40,137 nt of DNA from Sarea resinae (taxonomy: Eukaryota). This document shows, in pieces, positions 11,281 to 40,106 of this stretch (position 1 is the first letter of the stretch; every line of letters begins with the position of its first letter). A program made the translations under genes and the position numbers. The stretch covers positions 124,001-164,137 of the forward strand of contig JAPEUD010000057.1 of the NCBI GenBank assembly GCA_026026165.1. Reading direction: 5' to 3'. The notes below the pieces were generated by a model that had not been told where the DNA came from, made no database searches, and worked only from the letters and a program-made list of their open reading frames with translations.

Positions 11281-12778
11281 ATGCCACCGGCCGTCAGTAG
11301 ATTCGGCCCTCAAAGCCTCTCGAATCCTTTTGCGCATCTCCAACAGCCACATCTCCAACATCATCCCGCGCATTCTCAACCGCCAGGCTCGGTCGGCCTT
11401 CCCCCACCATCACTCAATGCTCACCCTACCTTTAGCCCCGGCAATCCGAACCCGAATCTCAATGCCTTTGCTCCTTCTGGCATGACCAATGGCCTTGCCG
11501 GCAGCTTTTCTGGAGGTGGCGGAATCAGCGCTGGTGGAGGGACTGGTCTGGCGAGTCAGGCTGCCCAGATGGGTTTCGCCCATGGTGCCGCCTTGCAACA
11601 ACAACAAGCTCAAGAGGGGGCCATGGCCAGGTCCGATGGGAATCCGATGGCAAAAGGCCGAATACGAGACGTGTGGAAGCAGAACCTGGCACAAGAGATG
11701 CAAGTTTTGCGGGGGCTGGTGGAGAAGTATCCCTATATCAGCATGGTAAGTATCGCGTCTTTTTGATAAAATAAAACTGACCACGCAGGATACGGAATTC
11801 CCTGGTATCGTCGCAAGGCCCATGGGCGCCTTTACCACCAAAGCCGACTATCACTACCAAACGCTTCGATGCAATGTCGATCTCCTCAAGATGATTCAAC
11901 TTGGCATCACTCTTTTTTCCGCCGACGGCGAACTCCCTCCAGCACATGCGGCAGATCCCTCGGGACTGAATACCTACCCAAACAACCTCATGCCCTGTCC
12001 TTGCACCTGGCAGTTTAACTTTCGGTTCTCGCTCCACAACGACATGTACGCACAAGAATCAATCGAAATCCTACAGAAAGCTGGCATCGACTTTCAGACG
12101 CACGAGAAGAATGGAATCGACCCTCTGGAGTTTGGCGCACTTCTGATGACTTCCGGGCTCGTTCTTCTCGATGACGTGCACTGGATTTCCTTTCACTCTG
12201 GCTACGATTTCGGCTATCTGATGAAGATTATGCTCTGCAAGCCTCTGCCCGACGAAGAGACCGAATTCCGAGAGCTCCTCCGCATCTTCTTTCCTTCTCT
12301 CTACGACATCAAGTTCCTGCTGAAACACACGACCAAGAGTGGATCCGTCAACAACTCGCCGCTCACTCCTGCAGCTACTCAGATCATCAGCAGTCTCGGT
12401 CAACGGTCGGGTCTTCAAGATCTGGCCGACGAGCTGGGCGTCAAACGGATAGGATCTCAGCATCAAGCCGGATCTGATTCGCTATTGACCGGCAAGGTCT
12501 TCTGGGAAATGCGACGAGGCATCTTCAACGGCCAGATTGATGACTCTCTCGTCGGTCAAGTCTGGGGACTCAATGGAATCGGCCATCCCGCTTCAAACGT
12601 CTCCCAGACTCCCAATCTGAACGGAGCCACCATCTATTCCAACGGCGCTCCCAGCACACCCAACACCGTTCACGCCGGCTTGGCCAACACCCCGGGCACC
12701 ACCGCCCCATCGGGCATGGGAACCTTGACGCCAGGTGGAGGCGTCGGAGTCTTTGGAGGATTCCAATTCGGAAAGTGA
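11281..12778 (+). CDS. CAF1: CCR4-NOT deadenylase subunit CAF1/POP2 (CNOT7-like)
   Basis: Exons 11281-11745 and 11789-12778. DEDD catalytic motifs SMDTEFPG, FHSGYDFGY, HQAGSDSLLT, plus LRCNVDLLKMIQLG. Confidence 0.94.
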
Positions 12779-13213: not shown

Positions 13214-15452
13214 ATGCTCGACTCCATCAAGAAGATTGTCAATGGCGACCCCACCACCCCTCATCCGTTCGATCCTCTGTCGACCGCCGAGATCGAAAAG
13301 GCTGTGAGCATCATCCGCAAGGAACATGGCTCGCTCTTCTACAATGCCATTACGTTGTGGGAGCCGCGCAAGGCCGAGATGATGGAATGGCTGGCCGAGC
13401 CCGAAAGCGCCCCAAGACCGCATCGGGTCGCCGATGTCGTCGTCGTGGCCAAGGGAAGCAAGGTCTACGACGGCTTGGTGGATCTGAACGAGGAAAAGCT
13501 TCTCAAGTGGGAGTCGACCGAAGGAGTGCAACCTCTGGTAGGTTTTTTTTTTCTTCTGAAGCTCATGCTGACCGTCTAGATTACCATGGAAGATCTTCAA
13601 ACCGTCGAGCACGTCGTCCGAAAGGACCCCAAGGTCATTGAGCAATGCGGCATCATCGGCATTCCTCCAGAAGACATGCACAAAGTCTACTGTGACCGTG
13701 AGTCTTTTAGTCTGATCCACAACTAAAGCTAATTTTCTAGCATGGACAATTGGTTACGACGAGCGGTTCGGAAACACCATTCGACTCCAGCAGGCTCTCA
13801 TGTACTACCGTCCCCACATCGACGACAGCCAGTACACCTTTCCCCTCGACTTTTGCCCCATCTTCAACGCCGACACCCAGGAGATTATTCACATCGATGT
13901 GCCACAGGTCAGACGGCCCATCAGCACGGCCCCTCCGAACAACTATCATGTCCCATCCATCGAAGCCGAAGGAGGATACCGAAAAGACATGAAGCCCATC
14001 AACATCACACAGCCAGAAGGCGTTTCCTTCAAGGTCGACGGCCGGACCATTGATTGGCAAAACTGGAAAGTTCACGTCGGCTTCAACTATCGAGAGGGAA
14101 TTGTTTTGAACAATGTCACTTTCAACGACAAGGGCAAGGAACGGCCGGTGTTTTACCGAATGTCTCTGGCCGAGATGGTCGTGCCATACGGTAACCCGGA
14201 ACATCCCCACCAGAGAAAGCATGCCTTTGATCTGGGAGAATATGGTGGTGGCTATATGACCAACAGTCTCAGTCTGGGATGCGATTGTAAAGGCGCCATT
14301 CATTACATGGACGCAGCCTTTGTCAACCGGGCCGGAGCAAGCACTATCATCAAAAACGCCGTCTGCATTCATGAAGAGGACTCGGGGATTCTCTTCAAGC
14401 ATGTACGTTTTTTACCTGCCAATCAATTCCAAGCTGACGCAAGCAGACGGATTTCCGAGATGGATCCATGATCGTCACCCGAGGAAGAAAGCTGATCATC
14501 TCTCACATCTTCACGGCGGCCAACTACGAATACTGCGTGTATTGGATCTTCCACCAAGACGGCACCATCCAGCTCGAGATTAAGCTTACCGGCATTTTGA
14601 ATACCTACGCCCTGAACCCTGGCGAAGACACGTTGGGATGGGGAACCGAGGTATATCCAGGGGTCAACGCACACAACCACCAGCATCTATTCTGCTTACG
14701 GCTGGACCCCAATATCGATGGACCCCAGAACACCGTCTTCCAAGTCGACGCGAAACGCGGTCCTGGCGAGCCCGGCAGCGCCGAGAATAAGTATGGTAAT
14801 GCCTTTTTCGCCGAAAAGACCAAATTCAAAACCGCCAAAGAGTCCCTGTCCGACTATGACGGCAGCACCAGTCGCACGTGGGAGATGGCCAATACCAACA
14901 AGCTCAACGAATACAGCCACAAGCCCGTCAGCTACAAGCTCGTCAGCCGCGAGGTTCCAACCCTCTTACCCCGGCCAGGAGGTCTCGTCTGGAAGCGCGC
15001 CGGATTCGCCCGTCACGCCGTGCACGTCACCAAGTGTAAGTCTCTCCCCGGATTCGATGAACAGAAACTGACTGTAGCAAGACTCGGACGAGCAAATCCA
15101 TCCAGCAGGCCGTCACGTCCCTCAGACATCCGGCGACCCATCCAAGGGTCTTCCCGAGTGGATCGCCGAGGACGAAAACGCCAACATTGACAATACCGAT
15201 GTTGTGCTTTGGCACACCTTCGGCATCACCCATTTCCCCGCGCCCGAAGACTATCCCATCATGCCCGCCGAACCAATGACCTTGTTGCTCCGGCCACGGA
15301 ACTTTTTCCTCAAGAACCCCGCCCTCGATGTTCCCCCTAGCTATTGCGTCTTGCCGAGTCAAAAGGCCGGAGTCCAAGGCAAGGTGCACGATGCCGCGGA
15401 CAAGATGAGTCGCCTTGCCTTTGGGGAGGCCAGTGGATGTTGTAGCAAGTAA
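13214..15452 (+). CDS. Copper-containing primary amine oxidase (TPQ cofactor)
   Basis: Exons 13214-13537, 13580-13697, 13741-14402, 14447-15035, 15082-15452. PHPFDPLS, DPWTIGYDERF, SLSLGCDCKG, IHEED, ANYEY (TPQ site), AHNHQH and GITHFP (Cu ligands). Confidence 0.95.
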
Positions 15453-17732: not shown

Positions 17733-18662
17733 ATGTGGTCTCTAACCGCCACGCTCACGTACCTGAAACTCAAATGCCTGGCAACACTCGTGCGGGTCTA
17801 CTACCGCCTCTTCGAAACCGGCCCCCCCGCCACGATGCACTATGACTCGATCCTCAACATCCCGTCCCGCGACGCCGGCAGGACGATCAAGACGCACGTC
17901 TACGAGTCGACACTCCCCCACAGCGGCCCTCGCCCGGTCCTCATCAACCTGCACAGCAGCGGCTTCGTGCTGCCGCTCCACGGCACCGGCGACGCCTTCA
18001 GCCACCACATCGCCACGCACACGCCCTACACCGTCCTCGACGCCTCGTACCGCCTGTCGCCCGAATACCCCTTCCCCGCCGCCCTGAACGACAGCACCGA
18101 CGTGATCAACCACGTCCTCTCGCAACCAGACAGATACGACACCACGCGCATCTCCGTCTCGGGCTTCAGCGCCGGCGGCACGCTCGCCCTCGTCGCCGCC
18201 CTCCTCACCTTCCCCAAGGACACCTTCCGCTCCATCCTGGCCTACTACCCACCCACCAAACAGTCGCAGGACCACGGCTCCAAAGCCGCGCCCGACCCCT
18301 CGGGCCACCCGATCCCCGGCCCCATCGGCCGCATCTTCACCGCCTCCTACTGCTTCCACCCCGTCGCGCCCTACGACCCCGCCGACCCGCGCATCTCGCC
18401 CTACTTTGCCCCGCTCGCCAACCTGCCCGCCCGCATCCTCTTCGTCACGTGCGCCTGCGACAGCCTGGCGCCCGAGACCGAGGAGCTGGCGCAGCGCGCC
18501 CAGGCCGAGGCGGGCCCCGGCATCCGCGTCGTCAGCAGGCGCATGCCCGGCTGCGATCACTCGTGGGATATCTCGCCTAACCTCGGGCCCCTGCAGCGAA
18601 AGGCTAGGGATGATGCCTATGCGCTCGCGGTTGCGATGCTGAATGAGCAGGAGGTCGAGTGA
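17733..18662 (+). CDS. Alpha/beta hydrolase, HSL family (Abhydrolase_3) esterase/lipase
   Basis: Intronless 309 aa. PVLINLHSSGF, YRLSPEYPFPAALND, nucleophile GFSAGG, CDSL (Asp), DHSWD (His). Confidence 0.9.
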   Translation: MWSLTATLTYLKLKCLATLVRVYYRLFETGPPATMHYDSILNIPSRDAGRTIKTHVYESTLPHSGPRPVLINLHSSGFVLPLHGTGDAFSHHIATHTPYTVLDASYRLSPEYPFPAALNDSTDVINHVLSQPDRYDTTRISVSGFSAGGTLALVAALLTFPKDTFRSILAYYPPTKQSQDHGSKAAPDPSGHPIPGPIGRIFTASYCFHPVAPYDPADPRISPYFAPLANLPARILFVTCACDSLAPETEELAQRAQAEAGPGIRVVSRRMPGCDHSWDISPNLGPLQRKARDDAYALAVAMLNEQEVE

Positions 18663-19085
18663 GTCGGGCCGGTCGAGAAGGTTCGACAATGGTCGTTCTG
18701 GCTGGCGGGAGATCGGGGGCGGTGGTGGGGGCGTAGGGGGGCGGGGGAAGGGGGTGGCGCTATATGTACTCTCCTCTCTCTCTCTTCTCCCGTTTCTAGA
18801 CGTTTTCGTAGTATAGGTAAGGTAGGGTAAGGGAGGCAATGGCACGCCATGGCTGGTATCTGATAGAATAGAAACAATAAAACAATAAAAATGCTTCCAT
18901 AACATTCATATAGAATAGAAAAGTCTTGTATCGTATTATATCGTATCAACTCACCTCAGGCTAGGCTAGACAGCTATGGATATATGATCTGACTAGGTAG
19001 ACGGTGTTGAAGACATTGCAGCAATTCCCTCCCTAGATACGCTTTGAAAATAGTATAGTAATCCTATATCAATACTATATCGATC

Positions 19086-19515
19086 ATAGATAACAGATAA
19101 CAGATAGATAGATAAACAGATGACAAGACCGCAGGACCAGCGACAAGATTCTACTTGCGTCTCGTCCTGTCTCGTCTCGTCTCGTCTCGTCTCGTCTCAT
19201 CCGAGTTAGCTGACTGGTTGGCTGGCTGGCTATGACAAACTCGTAAAAAGCAGTGGACGGGAAGCGGGAGAAGTGCGAGAATGAGAAGCGGAGGGGAGGG
19301 AAGTGCGAGAATGAGAAGCCAAAGGGAAACGGAAGGCAAGGCAAGGCAAGGCAAGGCAAGGCAAGGCAAGGCAAGGCAAGGCAAGGCAAGGGAAGGGAAG
19401 GGAAGGGAAGAGACGGGACGGGAACGGAGTGAGAGTGATAGTGTCTGTCTGTCTGTCTGAGGTAGAGTACACATAAGGTAGAGTCCACGTAAGGTAGGTA
19501 GGTAAGGTAGGTAGG
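19086..19515. repeat. Microsatellite cluster: (CAGATA)-like, (GTCTC)n, (AAGGC)n/(AAGGG)n, (GTCT)n, (AGGT)n, and a 20-bp duplication
   Basis: Read directly: (GTCTC)n ~19159-19198; (AAGGC)n then (AAGGG)n ~19333-19410; GAAGTGCGAGAATGAGAAGC at ~19270 and ~19300. Confidence 0.9.
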
Positions 19516-19567
19516 AAGAGGTGAGGTTGGGAGAGGTGAAGTGGGGTGCACGGGTTTGACGGGAAAC

Positions 19568-19733
19568 TGGTGAGGCGTTCGACGAAAAAAGTCCCGAAAA
19601 CTACGACATAGCCCTCCAAAGTGAGACAGACGTTCGACGAAGACGAGCCCGAGTGGAGGAGAGTTCGACTTTCTCGCCGGCCGTTATCCCAAAAATGGTG
19701 AGACGTTCGACGAAAAAGTGTCGAAAACTACGA
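19568..19733 (+). repeat. Imperfect ~38-bp direct repeat with GTTCGACGAA cores
   Basis: TGGTGAGGCGTTCGACGAAAAAAGTCCCGAAAACTACGA (19568-19606) vs TGGTGAGACGTTCGACGAAAAAGTGTCGAAAACTACGA (19696-19733); extra GACGTTCGACG cores near 19628 and 19813. Confidence 0.8.
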
Positions 19734-20237
19734 TTGGGAGATTACGTAAGCTGAGGTCTGTGGGTGCCTGGATTCGCGGTCCCTCTCTAAAATCATTGGA
19801 TGTGTAGTAGTAGACGTTCGACGGAAACAGTATGAAACTAACCTGAAGGTACCTGTCTCTGTGTACTCTTCAATACTCCGAATTGGAAGTAGCTGGAGCA
19901 CCACGCTCAGGTAAGAAGCTAAGGTAGACAGTGATAAGCATCTTGATGTGATCATAGATGGAAGCTCTTGCTGCCTTATACGTGATGAGTGTGTCGGTGT
20001 CTGTTTATCTTGACGTGATAGCTTGCCTTGCCAGTGAAGCATTATGCTGATCCGACTTATCAGTGACTGAGACGTGTAGCTCAGGCCGAAAGATATAAGA
20101 AAAGTTACGGGTAAGCTGTATGAGATATTTGTTAAGCATAGCGATAGGTTTCACCGAGGCGAAGATTACGAGGTAGTAGATGACCAAAAATAGGACAATG
20201 CATTGATTCAGCAAGAAAGCTAAGTCCCAAAAAAGTA

Positions 20238-20402
20238 TCACCACAGCCAGGCACCCCCCCGCCCCCATCGCCCTCCTCGACCCCCTCGGCCTCCTCGGCC
20301 CCCTCTTCCCCCTCGGCCCCGGCCCCCCCGGCCCCCCCGGCCCCCCCGGCCACGCCACTGTTGTTGCTGTTGTTGCTGGTGCTGCTGCTGGTACTGCTGG
20401 TA

Positions 20403-20469
<67 letters not shown>

Positions 20470-21221
20470 CACTGCTGCTGCCCCTGGGGCCCAGGACCGT
20501 AGAAATTGGACCCACCCATAATAATTTGCTGAGGACAACGTTAGTAACACATCAAAGGAATGGTCCAGGTATGACTTACGGTGGGCCAATAAACTACGGC
20601 CCCGAGCCCCCCCACGGGAAGAGAAGGCAGGCCGGGCGCGGGCACGGGGAGGAGGAGATGGCGGGGCGGGCGGGCGGCGGCGGGCGGGCGAGCAATTCCA
20701 GCCCAGCCATGGGGCCGGACACGACCCCGGCCCCGGGCGCGGGGGTGCGGGCCCAGTCGCTCCTCGAGCTGCACCCACCTCTCCACTATGAGTATGTATT
20801 AGTTTCGATCATCAATCATCAACAAAACCAAGTATTACACTTACCAGAGGCGACCGATGGGCCGCGTGGGGGCCGTGGGCGGGGGCCGGCTGGCGGTGGC
20901 GGTGGTGCTGGGGTTGGAGCTGGGGCTGGTGGTGGTGGTGGTGGTGGTGGAGGAGGAGGAGGAGGAGGAGGAGGAGGAGGATGGTGAGGACGCGGCGAAT
21001 GGGATCTTCTATTATCTACACGTTGTTAGCATCTTACTCGAATAGGTCTCACCAAGGACGTGATAGATCAGGAATGACAGGCTCAAATTGAGAGTAGTGA
21101 AGGTGAAGTAAGAAGAGGAAGGTCTCAATAGGATCGAGAGGATAACATTGAGAACAATAAGACGATGGCCTTGCTCAAAGAGTAGGTCCGACGATAGGAA
21201 GTATAACTCACTGTCTGTCAT
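20238..21221 (-). CDS. Orphan 264-aa protein (copy A): hydrophobic N-terminus, poly-Pro, conserved core, poly-Gln, RGG repeats, ends AWLW
   Basis: Exons 21221-21212, 21169-21053, 21015-20845, 20785-20580, 20528-20238 (795 nt). GT..AG introns give consistent phases and no stops. The paralog at 25.2-25.6 kb keeps the exon-4 frame with synonymous changes and in-frame indels. The start codon and the 37-nt intron 2 are the least certain parts. Confidence 0.62.
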
Positions 21222-21987
21222 CTTTGAAGTAGTGATAACCAAAGAGGAAAGGAAAAAGGAAAGGAAAGGAAGACGGAATCTGGACCTACTCATACCTACG
21301 ACTACGGGTTACCCTACGACCATTTTGGACACTCGATTCACCCATTGTGCGAGTCATCCTCAAACGGTTTCAGAGGTGGTCCGATTAGGGCAGGGCTTGC
21401 AGACACTGCTGAGAGCATATGACCTCAGGTTCACGTCGGCCACTCCAGCTGTTGCCGTCATGATGGCTCGCTACCAACGGGACGGGATGGACGATTGGGC
21501 TGAACTGGTATCGTTGCTGCCTGTCCTCTGCTTTCATGTGAGCTCCATCTTTCTCGCATAGAAAGTAATAGACAAGGCATCACTATGATTATGTTTAGTG
21601 ACGTAAGCTCTGATCGTTATAGCGAATTCGAAATCGGTGAGATGTCATGATAATGGAAGCCATCGTCATCACCATAGCAGTAGAGTCTCATGTGGTTCCG
21701 GCGTATGATGCCCGATCCATACAGGTGGTATGGCATGCTGCCCACCTCAGTTCATCTGTGATCTTATGATATCGAAATGAAGCTTCGTGGTGATCTCAAT
21801 GAATCCGGATGACGAGACACAGTAGAACATGCGAGCGAGCGTACGGACTGGATGTTAAACGTCAACAGAGGGCTCATTTGCATTGATCCACCATCATTCA
21901 ACCTCGACCAGACCCCCAAGCTGTTGGCTTCGTCTATCTCGATTCACGATGCTTGATCACAGATGCAATTGGACACGACCCTCGAAC

Positions 21988-22536
21988 CTAGAAGTAGTTG
22001 GTGTTTAGCTGTAGGACAAAAAAAAGTCTGAAAGACACAGGGAAAAGCGGGGGCAATATAGTCTTCAATAAAGCACAGCAAACACAGATAAGGACAGCAG
22101 GTACAGCATATAAAAGAGGATGTGTAGAGTTTTCTGGTGGCACGCGTCCTTTACGGATTCTTTCCTGACACTTCTCAGCCAGCGCTGTCAATGTGCTGAT
22201 TAGTCCTTTCGAGGGCATGGACCAGATCATTGTGTTTGGGCCACTTGGAACAGAGACCACTAGACCATCAGCAGCACCGGCTGCGGTACTGTCAAGTCGT
22301 TGAAGCAGAACTGTCAGAATGGGCGCAGACAAAAGCATTGAATCAAAATAAGCAGCCCGAAATCTTTTCAAAACCATCCTTTTCTTATCGATGGCCCTAC
22401 AGTCATGAAAGCATCGCGGCATATCTCCGTGGGACAAATCAAGCCAAAAGGACACTTTGAGTACACAACGCAGCTCTACCCCATTTCCATACTCAATTAT
22501 AAATTGCGAGACTGATCGATATCGGGCTGCTGTCAT
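21988..22536 (-). other. Unassigned 182-aa ORF in island 1, possibly a degenerate gene
   Basis: Open frame from an ATG on the same strand as the other island genes; no recognisable motif. Confidence 0.2.
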
Positions 22537-23398
22537 GCGGAGGAAGGCGAAATGGGTGATAATGAAGCATTAGCAGTGTGATGATGATAGAACGTCGAAG
22601 GACATGAGGTTCTATGGATGGATGGACGTTGTGCTAAGCTGTTGCACGCGGGGGAGCTAACGCAACCGTCCCTCTGCTACTTTGAGGTAGTGTCCCTTAC
22701 TAAGCTGGCATGAAGCGCTGCCGAAGGTATTTCAAAGTACCTTCTGTCGAAGAACAGCCCATATCGTACTCTGGAGTACATCTATCAACCTCCCACTGCG
22801 TGTTGATATATTCGGCTATATGGCTATCGATTCATCTACCCTACTAAACGGCTAGAACTACAGTGCGTTCATATAGCTAGAAGGGTCTTGCAAATGCATA
22901 CCTTGGTACAGTTGTGGCCGAAGCAGAACGTCGACTTCTATCTATGTTTCTGTCAGTACTTTGTTTGGATAGGTCTCTAACGGCGTGATAGGTCAGGAAT
23001 GGTAGAATGACGTTGATAGCAACAAGGTCGAGGACAGCGTACGATGTCTCTCAAATCCATTACTATTCACGCAGCTTAAGCTATGGGAGAGTAGCGATAG
23101 TGAGAGACCTAGCTTGCCGCAATCTAGAGCTACTACATCATATAGATGATATGCGTTTCTAGAAAATTCGAAAGTAAGGGCCCCTAGATTTTGGCCAGGA
23201 GGATGAGGAACATCAGGTGAACAACAGATCCTGCTGCGGAGAGCGTCGATAGTATGAAAAGCTCATAGATAAAGTCTAGGATATGTCGTTTTCTGATAGT
23301 AAAGGACGTGTTTTGCTCAGCATAGATAGGCAGCTAAAAGAAAACACATTCTTTCCCCTCCCTTACTTTCAACTTATCCTGAAATAATTTAGTTAAAT

Positions 23399-24977
23399 CT
23401 AGATTCTCTTTAATGTACGGTTGTATATCATGGCTAATGCCTCGAAGCGCATTATCAATTCCGCAAACTTCTCTTTATTGTCAGGCAATTCGAGTCTGGA
23501 CGCCTATCACACTGTTCTAAGAACAGCTTCACCTTCTCCCCCTCTCTCCATGGAAACGGCAAACTGGGATGGCTATGTCTGAGGCCAATCTTCACGCCTA
23601 GGACCTTCATGGCCCCGCGCCCTATGTCCCTCCCCCCCTTCGGCGCACTGCATGGCCTTCAGAAGTCTGGCCCTGATGACAGCATTAACTCTCTCTGCAC
23701 CTCTTCGAAGGGCAGCCTGAACTTCCCTTTTAATATCGGCCCTTCTCAGTGAGCGTTGCACTTTCTCGCTATCCACATAGCGCGCAGTGACGCCGTACTT
23801 GTCCTCTTCGATCGTGACTTTCTCTAGGCCAATCGTCGAGTGGCCCCAGAGCTGCTGCTCACCTATCAGACCACTCAGGCTGTACCTCTCCATTGCACAC
23901 GCAGTGTTGAGCCCTATCCGCTGTCGCTCCCTCAACGGTGGGAGAATGCTAGCCCGAACGAAGGCACACGCACTAGGCCCCATCACAGCCACGTCCAGGA
24001 GCCCAATACAGAACCCTTCAGCCAGAAGGATCTCTTTTGCGTCGCTTGCGCGGAGACCCATCTTGCTCGCATTCTATGACGCCAGTATCTTCACCTCGAC
24101 CGAGGTCTCTTCCCTCTCGATCCCTTCAGAGATCCGATAAGTCAGATCTTTTGCCAGCGTGTACTTCCTTCGCTGCTGACTTGAATGGGTCAAGGCACGG
24201 TTCCTGATCCCTCCCTTGCGCCTCCCTGAGCCAACGTACAACGCCAGCTCCTAGCCTCTGAGGGCCACCGCAAGATAGACGCCGCGCTTTTCTGAGACTT
24301 TTTGGCCCTTCACCGATTTAGGCGCCGCGTTCGGCAACGCATCGATCAACCCCACATCAAGCGTAGCAAGAAACGCTTGGGCCTCCGAGTTGAAGTGGCC
24401 GATCAACCGCCCTGCAAGCTCTGCGCTTGACCTGCCTCTCTGCAGCGCGACAATTCCGCCATGGACGGCATTGGCATCGAAATGCCGAACGATCTCATTT
24501 GCCGTGTAGAGCTTCTGCTCGCAGGTATATTTCCTGCCGGCCCATCTGAACGGGAAATTTAGAGTCAGCGTCTGTGCTTGCTGACTCAAAGACTCGATTT
24601 CATATTTACCTTGCCTCCACCGAGACCATCGTCTCCTCGATCTCCTCCACCTCATCATCTTCCACTCCATCCTCCTCCGACCCATCCTCCAATTCAGACT
24701 CATCCCATTCGAACACGACCTCCTCCGAATCCTCACCCTCCAGCTCCTCCGCACCCCCCAGCTCCTCCTCACTCTCTGGCTCCTCCTCACTATCCTTCAC
24801 CTCGTACACGCGTCCTGCCACAGCCGTGGCCGACTTTCGCTCCTCACTCTCCAGCTCCTCCTCACTGTCCTTGACCTCGTATATGCGTCCTGCCACTGCC
24901 GTGCCCAACTCTTCCTCCACCCGCTGCTTCTTATGCAGCCCACCCACCTGCTCCAATCCTCGCTTTGTACCTGCCAT
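23399..24977 (-). pseudogene. GIY-YIG-like nuclease-domain pseudogene with acidic N-terminus
   Basis: Exon1 24977-24610 (MAGTKRG..KKQR, duplicated TAVAGRxYEVKDSEEE, Glu-rich); intron 24609-24546; exon2 in one frame: RGVYLAVALRG*ELALYVGSGRRKGGIRNRALTH...ILAS*...LLAEGFCIGLL...IGLNT...QT*...RTV**ASRL...KRI*. Five premature TAG/TGA stops, no frameshift. Confidence 0.65.
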
Positions 24978-24996
24978 AGTATTCGATATTGACTAA

Positions 24997-25045
24997 ATAA
25001 TTAATTGATTGATTAAAACTGATTAATTGATTGATTGATTGAAAC
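24997..25045. repeat. AT-rich (TTGA/ATTA)n tract just upstream of the GIY-YIG-like gene
   Basis: attaattgattgattaaaactgattaattgattgattgattgaaac. Confidence 0.7.
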
Positions 25046-25164
25046 AAAAGTATTCGAATAACGGCTGGGACGATGTGGGGAAAGAATGGTAAGTCTTGGG
25101 GTGAGAGGACTCGAGCCAGGTAACGAGCCCGCTCCCCACAAGACCCGGCAGTGAGCCTGGATTA

Positions 25165-25629
25165 CGACTCACGGTGGGCCAATATACTACGGCCCCGAGC
25201 CTCCCCCCAACGGGAAGAGAGGGGAAGGCGGGCGTGGGGGCGAGCAGTTGGCAAGACGGGCGAGCGACTCTAGCCCAGCCATGGAGCCGGACACGACCCT
25301 GGCCCCGGTCGCGGGGGTGCGGGCCCAGGATCTCTTCCTGGCGGATCCACCGCTCTACTATGAGTGTGTGTCAGTTTTGATCATCAACGAAACCAGGTAT
25401 TCCACTTACCCGACTCGCGGGCTGGTGGTGGTGGTGGTGGCGGAGGAGAAGGGAGGAGCGACGAAAGTGGGTATCTTCTATTATTGTCTACATACCATTA
25501 GCTCTTATTCAAACAGTCTCACGAAGGACATGAGGGATCAGGAAGGAGGATGGCATTGAGAGAAACAAGAGCATAGCCTTGATCCAAAAGCAGGTCCAAT
25601 AATGCGAGATTCAACTTACTAGGTGCCAT
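25165..25629 (-). pseudogene. Paralog (copy B) of the 20.2-21.2 kb orphan gene; frameshifted exon 2 and no Q/RGG exon
   Basis: Same 10-nt first exon (ATGGCACCTA|gtaagt) and same intron positions. Exon 3 NNRR...PPPPPPP; exon 4 VERWIRQEEILGPHPRDRGQGRVRLHGWARVARP...LGAVVYWPT. Exon 2 is 55 nt (out of phase). Upstream DNA at 25970-26160 and ~26390-26470 also resembles 21240-21410 and ~21630-21670. Confidence 0.65.
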
Positions 25630-27051
25630 TGAATGTTAATCAATGGCGTGTTCGCCAAAGAGGAAGACGGATCGTCTCTGATATCTAGTTAGCAGTCTGC
25701 TTTGATCTAATGATCGAGTTGCATTGGTGAGCCAAGTTGCAAATGCATACCAAAGCTCTTCATTCGAATAGGTCTCTTCTGTGATAGATCGAAATGAAAG
25801 GCTGATCCCGGGAGCAATGAAGCAATGAAAGGATAATCTCGACTGGGAGAAGAGAATGACATCGACAGCAGCAAGCGGATGATATCGACAGCAACAGAAG
25901 GATGGCCTTGCTCGCAAAGCAGGTCCAACAATAGAGATATGACTTACTCTCGGCCGTTCTGAAAAAAGGACATCGATGAGGAAAGAAAGGAAAGGGAAGA
26001 CGGATCCTGGCCGTGCGTAATTCTTATAATTACGAGTACGGATAGGTTACCCTACAACCATTTCTGAACGAATACACCGATTTCTGTGTGCGAGTCATCC
26101 CACCCAATGACAGAAGCGACCCCATTGGGATAGGGCTTATAAACTATTACGTATGTTAATATCAAAAGATTGGAACCTAAGGTAGGTGCTTACCTGAGGC
26201 ATGTGACTCTAGGCTGACGATCATGCAAGGCAATGGCCGATCAGCAGGAGAAGGCATCCACAGATGCTATTGTTGACCTGGAAGATATGATGGAGCCAAA
26301 CTTCTGTAGTCGGCGCTGCTAGTCAACCGTGCTCAGATGAGCTGTAGACTGTTCGCACCGATAGGTACAGTCATCTGAATACCGTCCTAGAAATCGGTGA
26401 TATCTGAATTTACCGAGTAACATGATTCTTCGTAGTTAGTAATTGAGATGTCAAAGCATGCCATCGTCTTCGAAGATATAAGCTCGAGGTAGAGTGACAT
26501 TCTAGTATATCATGGCTTCTTTTCCAGATCTCTTCCCTGCTGCTGAATACAGGTATATCTGTCTCAGATATAGACTACCATCATCAAGCTGCGAGCTGAG
26601 CATGTCGTAGAGTGCACCTTCATCGTGATTAATTTTTTCTAGTAATCAGAACGGCCGATTGGGATACTCGAATAAGCGCATAAGCATGCCTCGATAGACA
26701 GTAACACCTCACGCTCTTGAAATTTCAACATAAATCAGAGCAAATGAGGTCCTCGAGCCGTGAGCTGCATCCATTTCAATGCATGACGCGCGATTACAGC
26801 CGCGATCGAGTATGACTCACGACCGTAACTAGCGGATCCGACGTTTAGCTGTAGGGCAATGCGGAACTTGAGCGATTTCTTCTTTCGGAAAGGCATAAGA
26901 GAAGGCGCAGGCGATATGATTATCAATTAAGCAAACGAAATTCAGAGACAAGTACGGCACATTGAAAATAGACACAACTTCTTGGGGGCAAGCGATCATT
27001 ATGTATTCTTTTTCTTGCCAAACAAAATCAGCGCGGCACTGAACATCCAAA

Positions 27052-27903
27052 TTAGTAGCCTTCAAGCCCATTGAGAGCCAACCCCTCCATCATCGATAGC
27101 CTCGAAGTGACGGAAGCGTCGCAGCATCTCTGATAGACAAGTTGAGCCAGAAGCAATGACGCATTGCGGATATTGTCAAATCTGAGCTTTCTTTTCCTGC
27201 TGTAGAAGGAGAACTCTCGAAAATGGTGGCTGGCCATAGAGGCCTGGAAGCCGCTGCTATAAGGGATCACGGTCGGGTTGACTGCCACGGTTTCTGACAG
27301 CGCTGATTGCGTCGATCTCTCTGGTTGGTGCGATTCAGCAATGACGAGCATATCTCCATCCCAGCCAGACTGAAGGTGATGGCTTCTGTAGGCTTTGCTG
27401 TCTTTATCCGCGAACAAAGTACTTGACAAGGCAAAAAGGCAATAGGTAGTGGAAGAACTGGAATGGTGGATGTTAGAAGTCAAGGGGCATTGTGCGGACA
27501 TTCTGTAGTAAAGGCGATGAGGCGTAAAGTATAGGTCAACGAATGGGGAATAAGCAAATAGTGGATGCACAAGTGAATGAGCAAACAGTGAATGAGTAGA
27601 TCCATGATTCGGAGGCTGCACTTCAACACTTCCCATCTTCAAGAAAGAGCACAGCGTCCTCGTCTCTATGAAGCCATTGAGGCAGAGAAAAGATAAAATG
27701 TAACCTGAAAAGTCAATGCCGTATAGTACCAATAGAGCATGGAACAGAGCGGCAAAGATAGCAAGGATGGAATGACAAGAAGCTCTTCCGCGCACAAGAT
27801 CTGATACGGAGGTAAATCTACCTACCAGTCGCCGATATGTCGGATTCTGCTCATGGAAGTCTATGTCAACGCTCGCGCATACTGGCAAAACGTATGGTCC
27901 CAT
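27052..27903 (-). other. Unassigned 283-aa ORF in island 1
   Basis: Long open frame from an ATG; no recognisable family. Confidence 0.2.
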
Positions 27904-28328
27904 AACTAGTAATAAAAGTCACTGTACCGATTTGATAAGCCGTAATAAATGCCATTGAAATGTGATATTCAAAAAGAAGGTATGAAGAACAAGAATAGAG
28001 GCCCCGAACGTTCTATCGAACTGCGAACGTTGCTTAGGTAATATGTGCGATGGATGGCACGACATCGACTGCATGGGTACTGCGTACCTTAGGAGTGGCA
28101 TTCGCTAAATCGGCTTATATAATCGAGGTCTGGGGCGCCTCGCTTACGCAAGCCTCGTACTCCGTACTTCGTACCTTACGGAGTACCGTTCGGATCAGAC
28201 TCGGCTAATACGGTGGGGCTAGGACGCAGCTAGTGTAACCACCAAAAAATTTCGAAAGGAGCCGGGCCGCCCCCTGAATCCCCGAAAAAGGGTGGAATAT
28301 CAGCGCTTTAAGCACAACATCTTTCAAC

Positions 28329-31260: not shown

Positions 31261-32030
31261 TCATCTTGGCTTTTGAGTCCAGCACTTTCCGGGGGGGAGC
31301 ACGATTCCGGGGCAATTGGAATTGAGGATATGGGGCCGAGCGATCTCGAGCAGGGCGATGGCCGCCTCTCTGCTGCTTTGGCTCACGGGTCCTATACCCT
31401 GGGTTCGGCGCACGGGAGAGCGAGAATGAGCGCGCGAGCTATCTTGTGCATGGCGCAATATCCGCATCACTTCACGCGCCATCCCAGCTACTCTCTCTAG
31501 CTCGGTATTGCTGGTACTGAGCTGGACAGCGGTGGTGACCATGGAACGCCGGTTGTTGGTTCGATTGCAGCGGCGGGATCGTGGAGCGGCTTCTCGAACC
31601 TTATCCTCTAGCTGTTCATTGGAAGATTACATCCATTGATGCTCTCGTTCCCCACATGTCCGGCATATGGCCATGCAAGGCGGGTGTGATGGCCATTACA
31701 GGTCCCACAATGCCGTGCTATCTCTTGATAGTTTGGGATTTAGGGTGGTCGATAATATTTTCCGCAATTAGGGCACATTGGCCGGTCTTCTCTTTGCCTT
31801 TGCTGTGGCGGCGCCTGTTGCTGCTGCTGCCACTTTTGCTGCCACTGTTGCGGCTGCCACTGCCATTAAGCTCTTTGCTGGCGGAGCTTACGCCGCTGCA
31901 AGAGCCGCTGCAAAGCATCTTTTCTTCGTACTCGTCCTACTGGTTAGCCATCTCTATAGTGTATGGACTTACCTGCTGTTTCTTCCGCTGTTCGTCTTCT
32001 TGTCATTCTCTTTGGTGGTGTTGGTATCAT
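31261..32030 (-). pseudogene. Decayed gene with a Q/W-rich stretch and three CCHC zinc-knuckle-like motifs
   Basis: Manual translation: MIPTPPKRMTRRR..|..QQRA*WQWQPQQWQQKWQQQQQ..CPNCGKYYRPP*..HCGTCNGHH(frameshift)PPCMAICRTCGEREH..., running into the frame of ORF 31261-31542. Has TAA stops and one frameshift. Confidence 0.5.
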
Positions 32031-32345
32031 GAGAAGCTCATACGAGGAGAAAGTGGACAAGGTGTGGAGGAAGTGGATAAGGTGAGTGAAGCTCTTCGTC
32101 CATCTTTGTGCGTCTGCGTCGTTTACTCACCATTAAATATAGTATCTAGCCCTAATCGGCAGGGTAGGACAGGGTTACGGCCGTGTCTCCTGTAGTTGAT
32201 TGCGTTTTTTAAAACATAGATTCGAGACTGATCGTAGGCTTGTTTGCTTTCATGTCTGACGTGATAGTCATGATAATAGCCTCTGTGAGGTGTTTACAAA
32301 CATTTCATATATTGTGGTTGATATTGATCAAAAAAGACACCACCG

Positions 32346-37907: not shown

Positions 37908-40106
37908 ATGCGCCAGTTCGGTAGACTGTTGCGCTTTTCCGCCATCGGTCCAAAACGTCTATCCATCGCGCGCCCATTCAGCACCACCGCGCCCGCAGCA
38001 AAGTTCCAGGTCAGCAAGAAAAACACGCCCGAAGTCGTCATGGCGACTACGACCAAGACAGGCCAGCCATTCGAACGGCCGTCTCTTGATTCGTTGATGC
38101 GGCGTAGGCTGTTCTACACACCTTCGTTTGAAATCTACGGTGGCGTCTCTGGTCTCTACGATTATGGCCCCCCGGGTTGCTCCCTGCAGGCAAACATTGT
38201 CGATCTATGGCGCAAGCACTTTGTGTTGGAAGAGGATATGCTGGAGCTGGATTGTACGGCTTTGACGCCCCATGAAGTGCTCAAGACCAGTGGTCACGTC
38301 GAAAAGTTTGCGGATTGGATGTGCAAGGACCCGAAGAGCGGCGAGATTTTCCGAGCCGATCATCTCGTCGAAGAAGTCCTGGAAGCACGATTGAAAGGCG
38401 ACAAGGAGGCGAGGGGCCAGAAGCTGGAGACGGAAGAGGCACCAGATGCGAAGAAGAAGAAGAAAAAGGTCAAGGAGATCAAGGCCATCAAATTGGAAGA
38501 CGCTGTTGTCAAGGAATACGAGGAGATATTGGCAAAGGTAAGATATATACTAAATCATAGATAAATGCTGACGAGATAGATTGACAACTACGATGGCGAC
38601 GAGCTTGGCCTGCTGATTACAAAATATGAGATCAAAAATCCCAGCACTGGCGGTGACCTCCTCCCACCGGTTGCGTTTAATCTGATGTTCCAGACATCAA
38701 TCGGTCCCAGCAGTAATCTGCCTGGCTACCTTCGACCGGAGACGGCCCAGGGTCAATTTCTCAATTTCCAAAAACTCCTCGAATTCAATCAACAGTCCAT
38801 GCCATTCGCCTCGGCCTCGATCGGCAAATCTTTCCGAAACGAGATCTCACCTCGGGCGGGTCTCTTGCGTGTTCGCGAATTTCTGATGGCCGAAATCGAG
38901 CACTTTGTCGATCCCGAGGGTGGCAAGAAGCATCCTCGATTCGAGGAGGTCAAGCATGTCGAGCTTGCATTGTTGAATCGTCACGTCCAACTAGACGGCC
39001 GAACAGAAATCGAGAGGATGGCAATCGGCAAGGCGGTCGAGACAGGCCTCGTCGATAACGAGACTCTTGGTTATTTCCTTGCGAGAATCCAACTTTTCCT
39101 GACGAAGCTCGGTGTCGACCAATCCAAGCTGCGCTTTAGACAGCACATGGCGAATGAGATGGCTCATTATGCTGCGGACTGCTGGGATGCAGAGCTACTT
39201 ACCAGTTATGGCTGGATTGAATGTGTGGGGTGTGCCGATAGAAGTGCTTTTGATCTTTCTGTTCACGCGAAAAAGACCGGCGCTCCTCTGGTGGTGCGCG
39301 AGACTCGCAGCGAACCGTTGCGGATCGAGGAATGGCAGATTGACCTCGACAAGAAGAAATTCGGTCCCAAATTCAAAAAAGACGGCAAAGCGGTCGAGGC
39401 GGCGGTCGAAGCATTATCTCAAGCGCAGCGCGAACAGCTTGCAGAGACTCTACAAAAAGATGGCAAGATCAGCATCGACGTGCCTGGCGTGGGCAATGGC
39501 AAGGTTGAGCTCGAAAAAGACATCATCGTCATCGAACGTCGAACCAGAGTCGAGAATACGAGAGAGTATATTCCCAATGTGATTGAACCCTCATTTGGCA
39601 TCGGTCGCATCCTCTACAGCTTGATCGAGCAAGTCTATTGGACCCGAGACGGTGATGAAGCTCGCGGGGTAAGTGTCCGTCGTACACGATTGCATGACGG
39701 TGGCTGACGTGCACATCAGGTTCTTTCCTTCCCACCCCCCGTGGCGCCAACCAAGGTGCTGCTTGTCCCTCTCTCGACACATGCCGACTTTGGGCCTCTG
39801 ATCCGCCGACTCAGTCAGCGGCTTCGTGTGCTGGGTATATCGAGTCGGGTGGATGATTCCTCGGCTAGCATTGGCAAGCGCTATTCGCGCAACGACGAAC
39901 TGGGCACTCCCTTGGGCGTCACGGTCGATTTCCAGAGCGTCAAGGATGGTAGCTTCACCCTCCGCGATCGAGACACGACCAAGCAGGTGCGAGCGAGCGA
40001 AGCCGAGATTACAGAGGCGATCAAGAGTCTGGTCGAGGGCAACGAGACATGGGCCGACGTCATGCGTAGATTACCCGAGTATTTGGGTCAACAAGATGTG
40101 GATTAA
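37908..40106 (+). CDS. GRS1: Glycyl-tRNA synthetase (alpha2 type), mitochondrial and cytosolic isoforms from two in-frame ATGs
   Basis: Exons 37908-38537, 38580-39668, 39720-40106. YDYGPPG, TSGHVEKFAD, YLRPETAQGQF, FRNEISPRAGLLRVREF, EMAHYA, VIEPSFGIGRI, SIGKRYSRNDELG. Second ATG at 38040. Confidence 0.96.

Follow-up and report, generated by a model that had tools for sequence, protein, structure and literature searches.

Proteins of the FET family (FUS, EWS and TAF15) and other RNA-binding proteins with prion-like domains and RGG motifs are characterized by a Gln-rich low-complexity tract and runs of RGG; FET proteins also have an RRM, a RanBP2 zinc finger and an S/Y/G/Q domain. In fungi, related compositions are found in the RGG/GAR proteins, such as yeast Sbp1, Scd6 and Npl3 and the nucleolar proteins Gar1, Nop1 and Nsr1, whose RGG runs bind RNA and are arginine-methylated. 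An RGG/RG-motif protein is defined by three or more RGG units spaced a few residues apart. A further class to consider is that of fungal orphan genes and de novo proto-genes.

Here we describe a candidate gene on the minus strand (21221-20238, termed copy A) of a 40,137-nt window, which is the whole stretch of DNA that was analyzed. On its sequence, the locus looks like a small, species-restricted, intron-containing candidate gene with a floppy product rich in Pro, Gln and Arg/Gly. An earlier note had proposed a five-exon orphan gene encoding a hydrophobic leader, poly-Pro, poly-Gln and RGG repeats. That an intron-containing, gene-like locus lies on the minus strand held up, but the five-exon structure was not supported. 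Our leading reading, held tentatively, is that copy A is a real, unannotated, young and lineage-restricted ascomycete gene or proto-gene, with four exons rather than five.

The candidate resembles FET proteins in that a Gln-rich tract is followed by an RGG run (9 RGG in 96 residues) and in that disorder is predicted. It differs in having no RRM, RanBP2 zinc finger or any Pfam domain; its tract is near-pure polyQ derived from a hexanucleotide microsatellite, rather than an S/Y/G/Q domain; and it is small (225 residues), with no sequence relative found. Because no domain was found by Pfam in any exon translation, we place the candidate outside the FET family and every RRM family. With the fungal RGG/GAR proteins it shares a C-terminus in which RGG units follow closely on one another, but those proteins add a folded domain (RRM, Lsm, methyltransferase or others) and the candidate has none. 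Like fungal orphans and de novo proto-genes, it is short, disordered and of low complexity, with no detectable homolog, weak codon adaptation, no annotation and a probably decaying duplicate nearby. What sets it apart from that class is its structure, richer than that of many de novo ORFs: three well-formed introns and, upstream, a conserved block. The candidate is an ordinary kind of object for fungal genomes and, on sequence alone, one of the many unannotated low-complexity ORFs that they contain.

Genomic setting and local introns

Pfam assigned the large ORFs of the window to eukaryotic families, each spread over neighboring frames: copper amine oxidase, NIPA Mg transporter, CAF1, Brix, WD40 and class II tRNA synthetase. 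One copper amine oxidase exon, at 14438-15187, shares 99% identity with the NCBI entry "MAG: Copper amine oxidase [Sarea resinae]" (P0005), a protein that maps back by tblastn to 13214-15449 in four pieces with 91-100% identity. Given the 99% match, we take the window to be nuclear DNA of the ascomycete Sarea resinae or a near-identical fungus. Annotated proteins of such a genome are present, at least in part, in the protein databases searched.

Introns of neighboring genes could be verified against the copper amine oxidase protein or from the ORF junctions of Pfam-supported genes. These introns (11746-11788, 13698-13740, 15036-15081, 38538-38579 and 39669-39719) are 42-51 nt long and have GTRAGT 5' splice sites and CTRAY branch sites. 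By fungal standards, the introns of this genome are very short.

The ∼9 kb from 19000 to 28000 contain no ORF with a Pfam family, while the conserved housekeeping genes on either side all match. This region looks like a lineage-specific, repeat-rich island. Within it, a dense cluster of microsatellites whose periods are not multiples of three (19088-19539), including (AAGGC)n at 19322-19428 and (CGTCT)n at 19158-19198, lies just downstream of the stop codon of the candidate gene and could be 3' UTR or intergenic DNA.

Predicted structure of copy A

Two further copies of parts of the locus lie on the same strand, copy B (25173-25629) and copy C (25754-26160), and these guided the model. Upstream of copy A, a promoter-like block (21286-21400, minus strand, as for all features below) is shared with copy C, with 129 matches and 36 mismatches over ∼165 nt (78% identity). 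A TGACTC-containing motif lies within this block at 21359-21346 and has a counterpart in copy C near 26100. TGACTC is a Gcn4/AP-1-type core, and the motif may be a conserved promoter element. Just 5' of the start codon is a CT-rich tract (21241-21285; Tandem Repeats Finder [TRF] row 21241-21267, period 12), partly kept in copies B and C, which we take to be core promoter or 5' UTR, by what is generally seen in promoters of filamentous fungi.

The coding part of exon 1 (21212-21221) consists of ATG plus 7 nt and ends in phase 1. Its start codon is homologous across the copies, being ATG in A (21221), ATG in B (25629) and ACG in C, and a GTRAGT 5' splice site directly follows the start-codon exon in all three. 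An ATG further upstream, at 21293, shares the frame of the one at 21221 (ORF 21012-21293) and would add 24 residues, rather hydrophobic by eye. It lies within the CT-rich tract and, by our reading of the alignment, is not conserved: copy C has ATA, and copy B has an in-frame stop just upstream of its ATG.

Revised intron 1 (21016-21211; 196 nt; GTGAGT ... GCTAAC ... TAG) has a GC content of 43%, carries indels between the paralogs, and leaves both A and B in frame when removed. It encloses what had been called intron 1 (21211-21170), the "hydrophobic" exon 2 (21169-21053) and intron 2 (21052-21016). Exon 2 of the revised model (20845-21015; 70% GC) would encode a basic start and then a poly-Pro/Pro-Ala segment, with 33 Pro in 56 residues, from period-3 arrays at 20891-20981. 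It is followed by intron 2 (20786-20844; 59 nt; GTAAGT ... AACTAAT ... TAG; 31% GC), by exon 3 (20580-20785; 77% GC), a non-repetitive core whose translation runs from VERW to YWPT and which aligns with copy B, and by intron 3 (20529-20579; 51 nt; GTAAGT ... TACTAAC ... CAG; 43% GC). Exon 4 (20238-20528; 66% GC), with arrays of period 6, 9, 12 and 33, would encode a short G/Y/P stretch, poly-Gln interspersed with W, Y and H, and RGG repeats, ending at TGA 20240-20238.

The composition described in the earlier note was borne out: the longest Pro run is 18, and the 96 residues of the last exon include 39 Q (longest run 22), 9 RGG and 11 RG. If translated in the proposed frame, exon 4 thus contains clustered RGG of the kind that defines RGG/RG-motif proteins. 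Its Q tract is near-pure polyQ specified by a hexanucleotide microsatellite, and its only matches in Pfam are sub-threshold and of low complexity (best E 0.016).

On our reading, the locus would be transcribed, spliced as in the four-exon model and translated. The transcript would carry a 10-nt coding first exon, a 196-nt intron, the poly-Pro exon, a 59-nt intron, the core exon, a 51-nt intron and the poly-Gln plus RGG exon. The predicted product is a disordered protein of 225 residues, with a short basic N-terminus, poly-Pro, a core rich in Arg, Pro, Gly and Trp, polyQ and an RGG tail. Much of its length would come from microsatellites, of period 3, 6 and 9 nt, that lengthened in frame. By analogy, such a product, if translated, may be a self-associating, nucleic-acid-binding low-complexity protein by virtue of its RGG tail and Gln tract. 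The label "prion-like/RNA-binding" is drawn from the composition of a predicted product.

Copies B and C

Copy B lies 4.5 kb from copy A and is a partial paralog that aligns to A and has no polyQ/RGG exon. Its ATG (25629) is followed by a 132-nt intron (25619-25488), an exon (25487-25410), an intron (25409-25358) and the core exon (25357-25173). The start codon, splice signals and frame of copy A are kept. All shared GT..AG pairs are present; the branch site of intron 1 is CTAAC in A and CTAAT in B, which is still compatible with CTRAY, and intron 2 retains its signals, with CTGAC as the branch site in place of the CTAAT of copy A. The 5' splice site of intron 3 in A is GTGAGT in B, and homology between the two stops after it. 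Under the four-exon model, the frame of copy B runs without a stop through 91 codons, as far as the core extends.

Copy C is a 5' fragment located directly upstream of B, comprising the upstream block, the first exon with ACG for ATG and part of intron 1, and is 75.5% identical to A. Gaps in this alignment are of 1, 1, 12, 3, 2 and 1 nt in A and 2, 1, 1, 5, 1 and 4 nt in C. Most likely, copies B and C represent one partial duplicate that is 3'-truncated, doubled at its 5' end and decaying. Repeat-induced point mutation was considered and rejected as the source of the differences between A and B, which comprise 46 transitions and 27 transversions, without the strong excess of transitions expected.

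Coding signal

The alternative that fares best against a protein-coding gene, though we regard it as unlikely, is that the locus is transcribed and spliced but yields a non-coding RNA or belongs to a decaying pseudogene, with the frame surviving since GC-rich repeats lack stop codons. Evidence for coding is modest to weak, and much of it can be set against this alternative in either direction.

The absence of stops had been offered as support for the gene. It is no more than expected by chance, as the GC-rich repeats leave every one of the six frames open: in the stretch of the polyQ/RGG and core exons, open sense frames span 20238-20540, 20132-20551 and 20005-20808, and open antisense frames span 20184-20987, 20207-20521 and 20224-20502. 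The open frame is therefore uninformative, which counts for the non-coding alternative.

Codon usage also tends to favor that alternative. We scored each exon by log-odds, with training on 1972 codons from neighboring genes. Control exons scored +0.50 and +0.61. The core reached +0.05, the highest among its frames, and the poly-Pro and last exons −0.41 and −0.32, respectively. In these two repeat exons, another frame outscores the proposed one.

Comparison of the copies gives a mixed picture. The earlier note had claimed a paralog of the core exon that keeps its frame with synonymous substitutions. Such a paralog is indeed present, at 25358-25173, with its frame kept and indels of 24 and 3 nt; 43 of the 61 aligned positions are invariant. 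The substitutions are not mainly synonymous (Nei-Gojobori Sd 14.2, Nd 21.8), and the differences by codon position over the 61 aligned codons are 10/11/15. The dN/dS ratio is 0.57, not significantly below 1 (Fisher P = 0.15), in what is the sole dN/dS comparison, A versus B, with B possibly a pseudogene itself. Still, the proposed frame has the lowest ratio of the three, the other two giving 1.38 and 1.02, which argues against the non-coding alternative. Identity between A and B is 82.4% for the core exon and 86.5% for intron 2, so exons are no better conserved than introns, which counts for the non-coding alternative.

The length differences point the other way. Between A and B, exon lengths differ by 93 nt (the poly-Pro exon, longer in A) and 21 nt, both multiples of three, whereas intron lengths differ by 64 nt (196 versus 132) and 7 nt, which are not. 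Two exons would both differ by multiples of three with a chance of ∼1 in 9, a likelihood inflated by trinucleotide slippage; the pattern follows in part from such slippage, and this counts against the coding reading. Repeat periods show a similar bias: six of the eight TRF rows within exons have a period divisible by three (3, 3, 6, 9, 12 and 33), compared to two of eight in the flank at 19088-19539. The ATG and phase kept in two copies likewise speak for a coding gene.

We also modeled the core exon with AlphaFold, using a two-row alignment. The mean pLDDT was 56.6 and the pTM 0.15, with a single nine-residue helix, and the model thus predicts that the protein, if made, is disordered throughout. 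Disorder of the core, together with the lack of any homolog or domain (see below), is in line with a non-coding locus. We nevertheless prefer to see copy A as a gene or proto-gene, with the reservations given above.

Splice signals

A more radical view, which we consider improbable, is that there is no gene at all, only microsatellite-rich intergenic DNA that was locally duplicated and in which splice-like motifs and open frames arose by chance. To evaluate the splice signals, we defined a strict intron pattern, consisting of GTRAGT, CTRAY 5-30 nt before YAG, and a length of 40-120 nt, with the intron consensus drawn from Table 1 of a Fusarium study (PMC5677156). The predicted introns 20844-20786 (59 nt) and 20579-20529 (51 nt, with a perfect TACTAAC) match this pattern and carry the full consensus, whereas two others that had been proposed, 21211-21170 and 21052-21016, do not.

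The pattern occurs 12 times in the window, compared to 4.4 ± 2.3 times in 200 dinucleotide-preserving shuffles, both strands considered. That a shuffled window contains ∼4.4 matches lends some credence to chance, as does one actual match, 14969-14932, which is antisense within a real exon. On the other hand, four of the five plus-strand matches fall at exon junctions of Pfam-supported genes (11746-11788, 13698-13740, 15036-15077 and 39669-39719), and the shuffle mean corresponds to only ∼0.05 chance matches per kb-strand, against which stand two strict introns within 320 nt on one strand. GC content, moreover, steps sharply by 25-45 points at the exact junctions of copy A, from 70, 77 and 66% in exons to 43, 31 and 43% in introns. 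It also tells against a chance assembly that the introns join frames in phase, that their signals are conserved in copy B, and that the conserved ATG has a CT-rich tract and a conserved block upstream of it.

A Neurospora study (PMC4408805) reports that the splice signals of filamentous fungi are low in information and can arise by chance. Because of this, both the non-coding and the no-gene readings keep some weight, although we continue to favor an intron-containing gene.

The hydrophobic leader

The least likely of the alternatives, and one we very much doubt, is that the five-exon model is right: splicing would take out introns of 42 and 37 nt, and copy A would make, if only as one isoform, a protein with a hydrophobic leader resembling a signal peptide. 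As had been claimed, the five exons do join in phase: with the given introns removed, the CDS is 795 nt long and runs uninterrupted through 264 codons to TGA 20240-20238. The leader exon of copy A has Kyte-Doolittle maxima of 2.8 (9-residue window) and 1.56 (19-residue window) and a weakly positive in-frame codon score (+0.19), and neighboring genes have introns as short as 42-43 nt. All of these points are compatible with the model.

The other two copies argue against it. Leader-exon sequence has a 62-nt deletion (23 + 39) in B and many indels that are not multiples of three in C, and hence its frame is kept in neither. By hand reading, the five-exon frame of copy B is broken and reaches a stop shortly after the junction. 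The hydrophobic stretch that a signal sequence would require is found only in the former exon 2 of copy A. The four-exon model, which lacks this exon, has no signal peptide. Accordingly, the suggestion that the product is secreted or membrane-tethered depended on an exon that looks non-coding in both B and C.

The two introns flanking the leader fare no better. Candidate intron 21052-21016 is 37 nt long (35 nt in B), shorter than any verified local intron (42-51 nt), and its 5' splice site, GTGAGA, is lost in C. For candidate intron 21211-21170, the 3' zone where branch sites usually lie was inspected by eye in all three copies and showed no CTRAY, TTRAY or CTHAH motif; copy B carries one TTGAA, six bases from the 5' end. 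Were this intron retained, the frame would continue through it without a stop, and so the frame gives no reason for its removal. For Fusarium core genes, PMC5677156 gives intron lengths of 42-529 nt and CTRAY in 91%, with a minimum of 42 nt among 2022 introns. A 196-nt intron fits this range, unlike one of 37 nt, below that minimum, or one of 42 nt that lacks a branch motif.

The 196-nt stretch that holds the leader has the GC content of an intron (43%), and its removal as a unit keeps A (225 codons, same stop) and B (91 codons) open. The "hydrophobic leader" exon is thus probably intron sequence. We prefer the four-exon model because it leaves both A and B in frame, has an intron-like GC content where it places intron 1 and exon differences that are multiples of three, and accounts for a leader that looks non-coding in B and C. 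A comparison of paralogs can correct an exon model based on frame only, as illustrated here by a "secretion leader" that vanishes once the other copies are read.

Search for relatives

The proposal that the gene is an unannotated orphan found support, as no relative was detectable in protein, Pfam or Atlas searches; "orphan" here means without a relative among predicted proteins. In word-indexed searches against longer proteins, none of 1544 candidates scored for the core exon and none of 41 for the N-terminal ORF. A profile of the A and B cores, searched with HMMER against 1.84 billion representatives, gave no genuine homolog; its only two matches (E about 4e-5) are both translated tandem repeats and were judged spurious. 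There was no usable match in the ESM Atlas. Among metagenome contigs, an exact DNA pattern gave 0 matches, and a scan for related loci matched 45 pattern stretches, none of which was confirmed. Exact look-up of the bacterial-style ORFs of the locus in the collection returned 0 of 7.

Nothing above threshold was seen in Pfam for 12 frames/ORFs of the region, which yielded no RRM, transposase or reverse transcriptase, and for lack of the latter two we dropped the idea of a transposon origin. Rfam, scanned over 18500-27000, gave nothing in the locus; its only matches, two snoRNA-like ones outside it, were below threshold (E 0.49 and 0.62). A literature search on the Sarea resinae genome retrieved no paper on the candidate locus.

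No protein with the candidate exons was found in the databases, though a protein from a near-identical genome is present there. This could be read in favor of there being no gene. Alternatively, because no matching protein came from the near-identical annotated genome, the candidate gene appears to be uncalled in that genome. One caveat here is that a gene uncalled in its own genome would be uncalled in relatives too, and blanks in the protein databases should be viewed in this light.

Implications and neighboring features

If the locus is expressed and translated, it would show neatly, on a small scale, how the protein of a taxonomically restricted gene can be made almost entirely from coding microsatellites, and the adjoining partial duplicate would help to date the steps. 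It would be useful for studying the origin of genes de novo and condensate-type low-complexity proteins in a little-studied fungal class. A bolder scenario, and in our view an improbable one, is that the gene is caught in the act of birth. In this case, a short spliced transcript would owe most of its coding length to in-frame growth of three microsatellites, namely (CCN)n, (CAACAG)n and an RGG unit of 9 nt, yielding a species-restricted, prion-like/RGG, condensate-forming protein; the truncated sister copy would preserve a stage that predates the gain of the polyQ/RGG exon or follows its loss.

Two other features of the window deserve mention. A second repeat of the CTG/TTG type, at 31782-31878, resembles the antisense of the polyQ array (61-77% identity; blastn pieces 74-80%) and sits within a plus-strand ORF (31539-32195) with no Pfam family. 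Just downstream of copy B, a separate gene candidate on the minus strand (24606-24992, continuing to ∼24251) begins with Met-Ala-Gly-Thr-Lys and would encode a very acidic, Glu/Asp-rich product. It, too, has no Pfam family, and it contains a 75-nt tandem repeat at 24763-24918.
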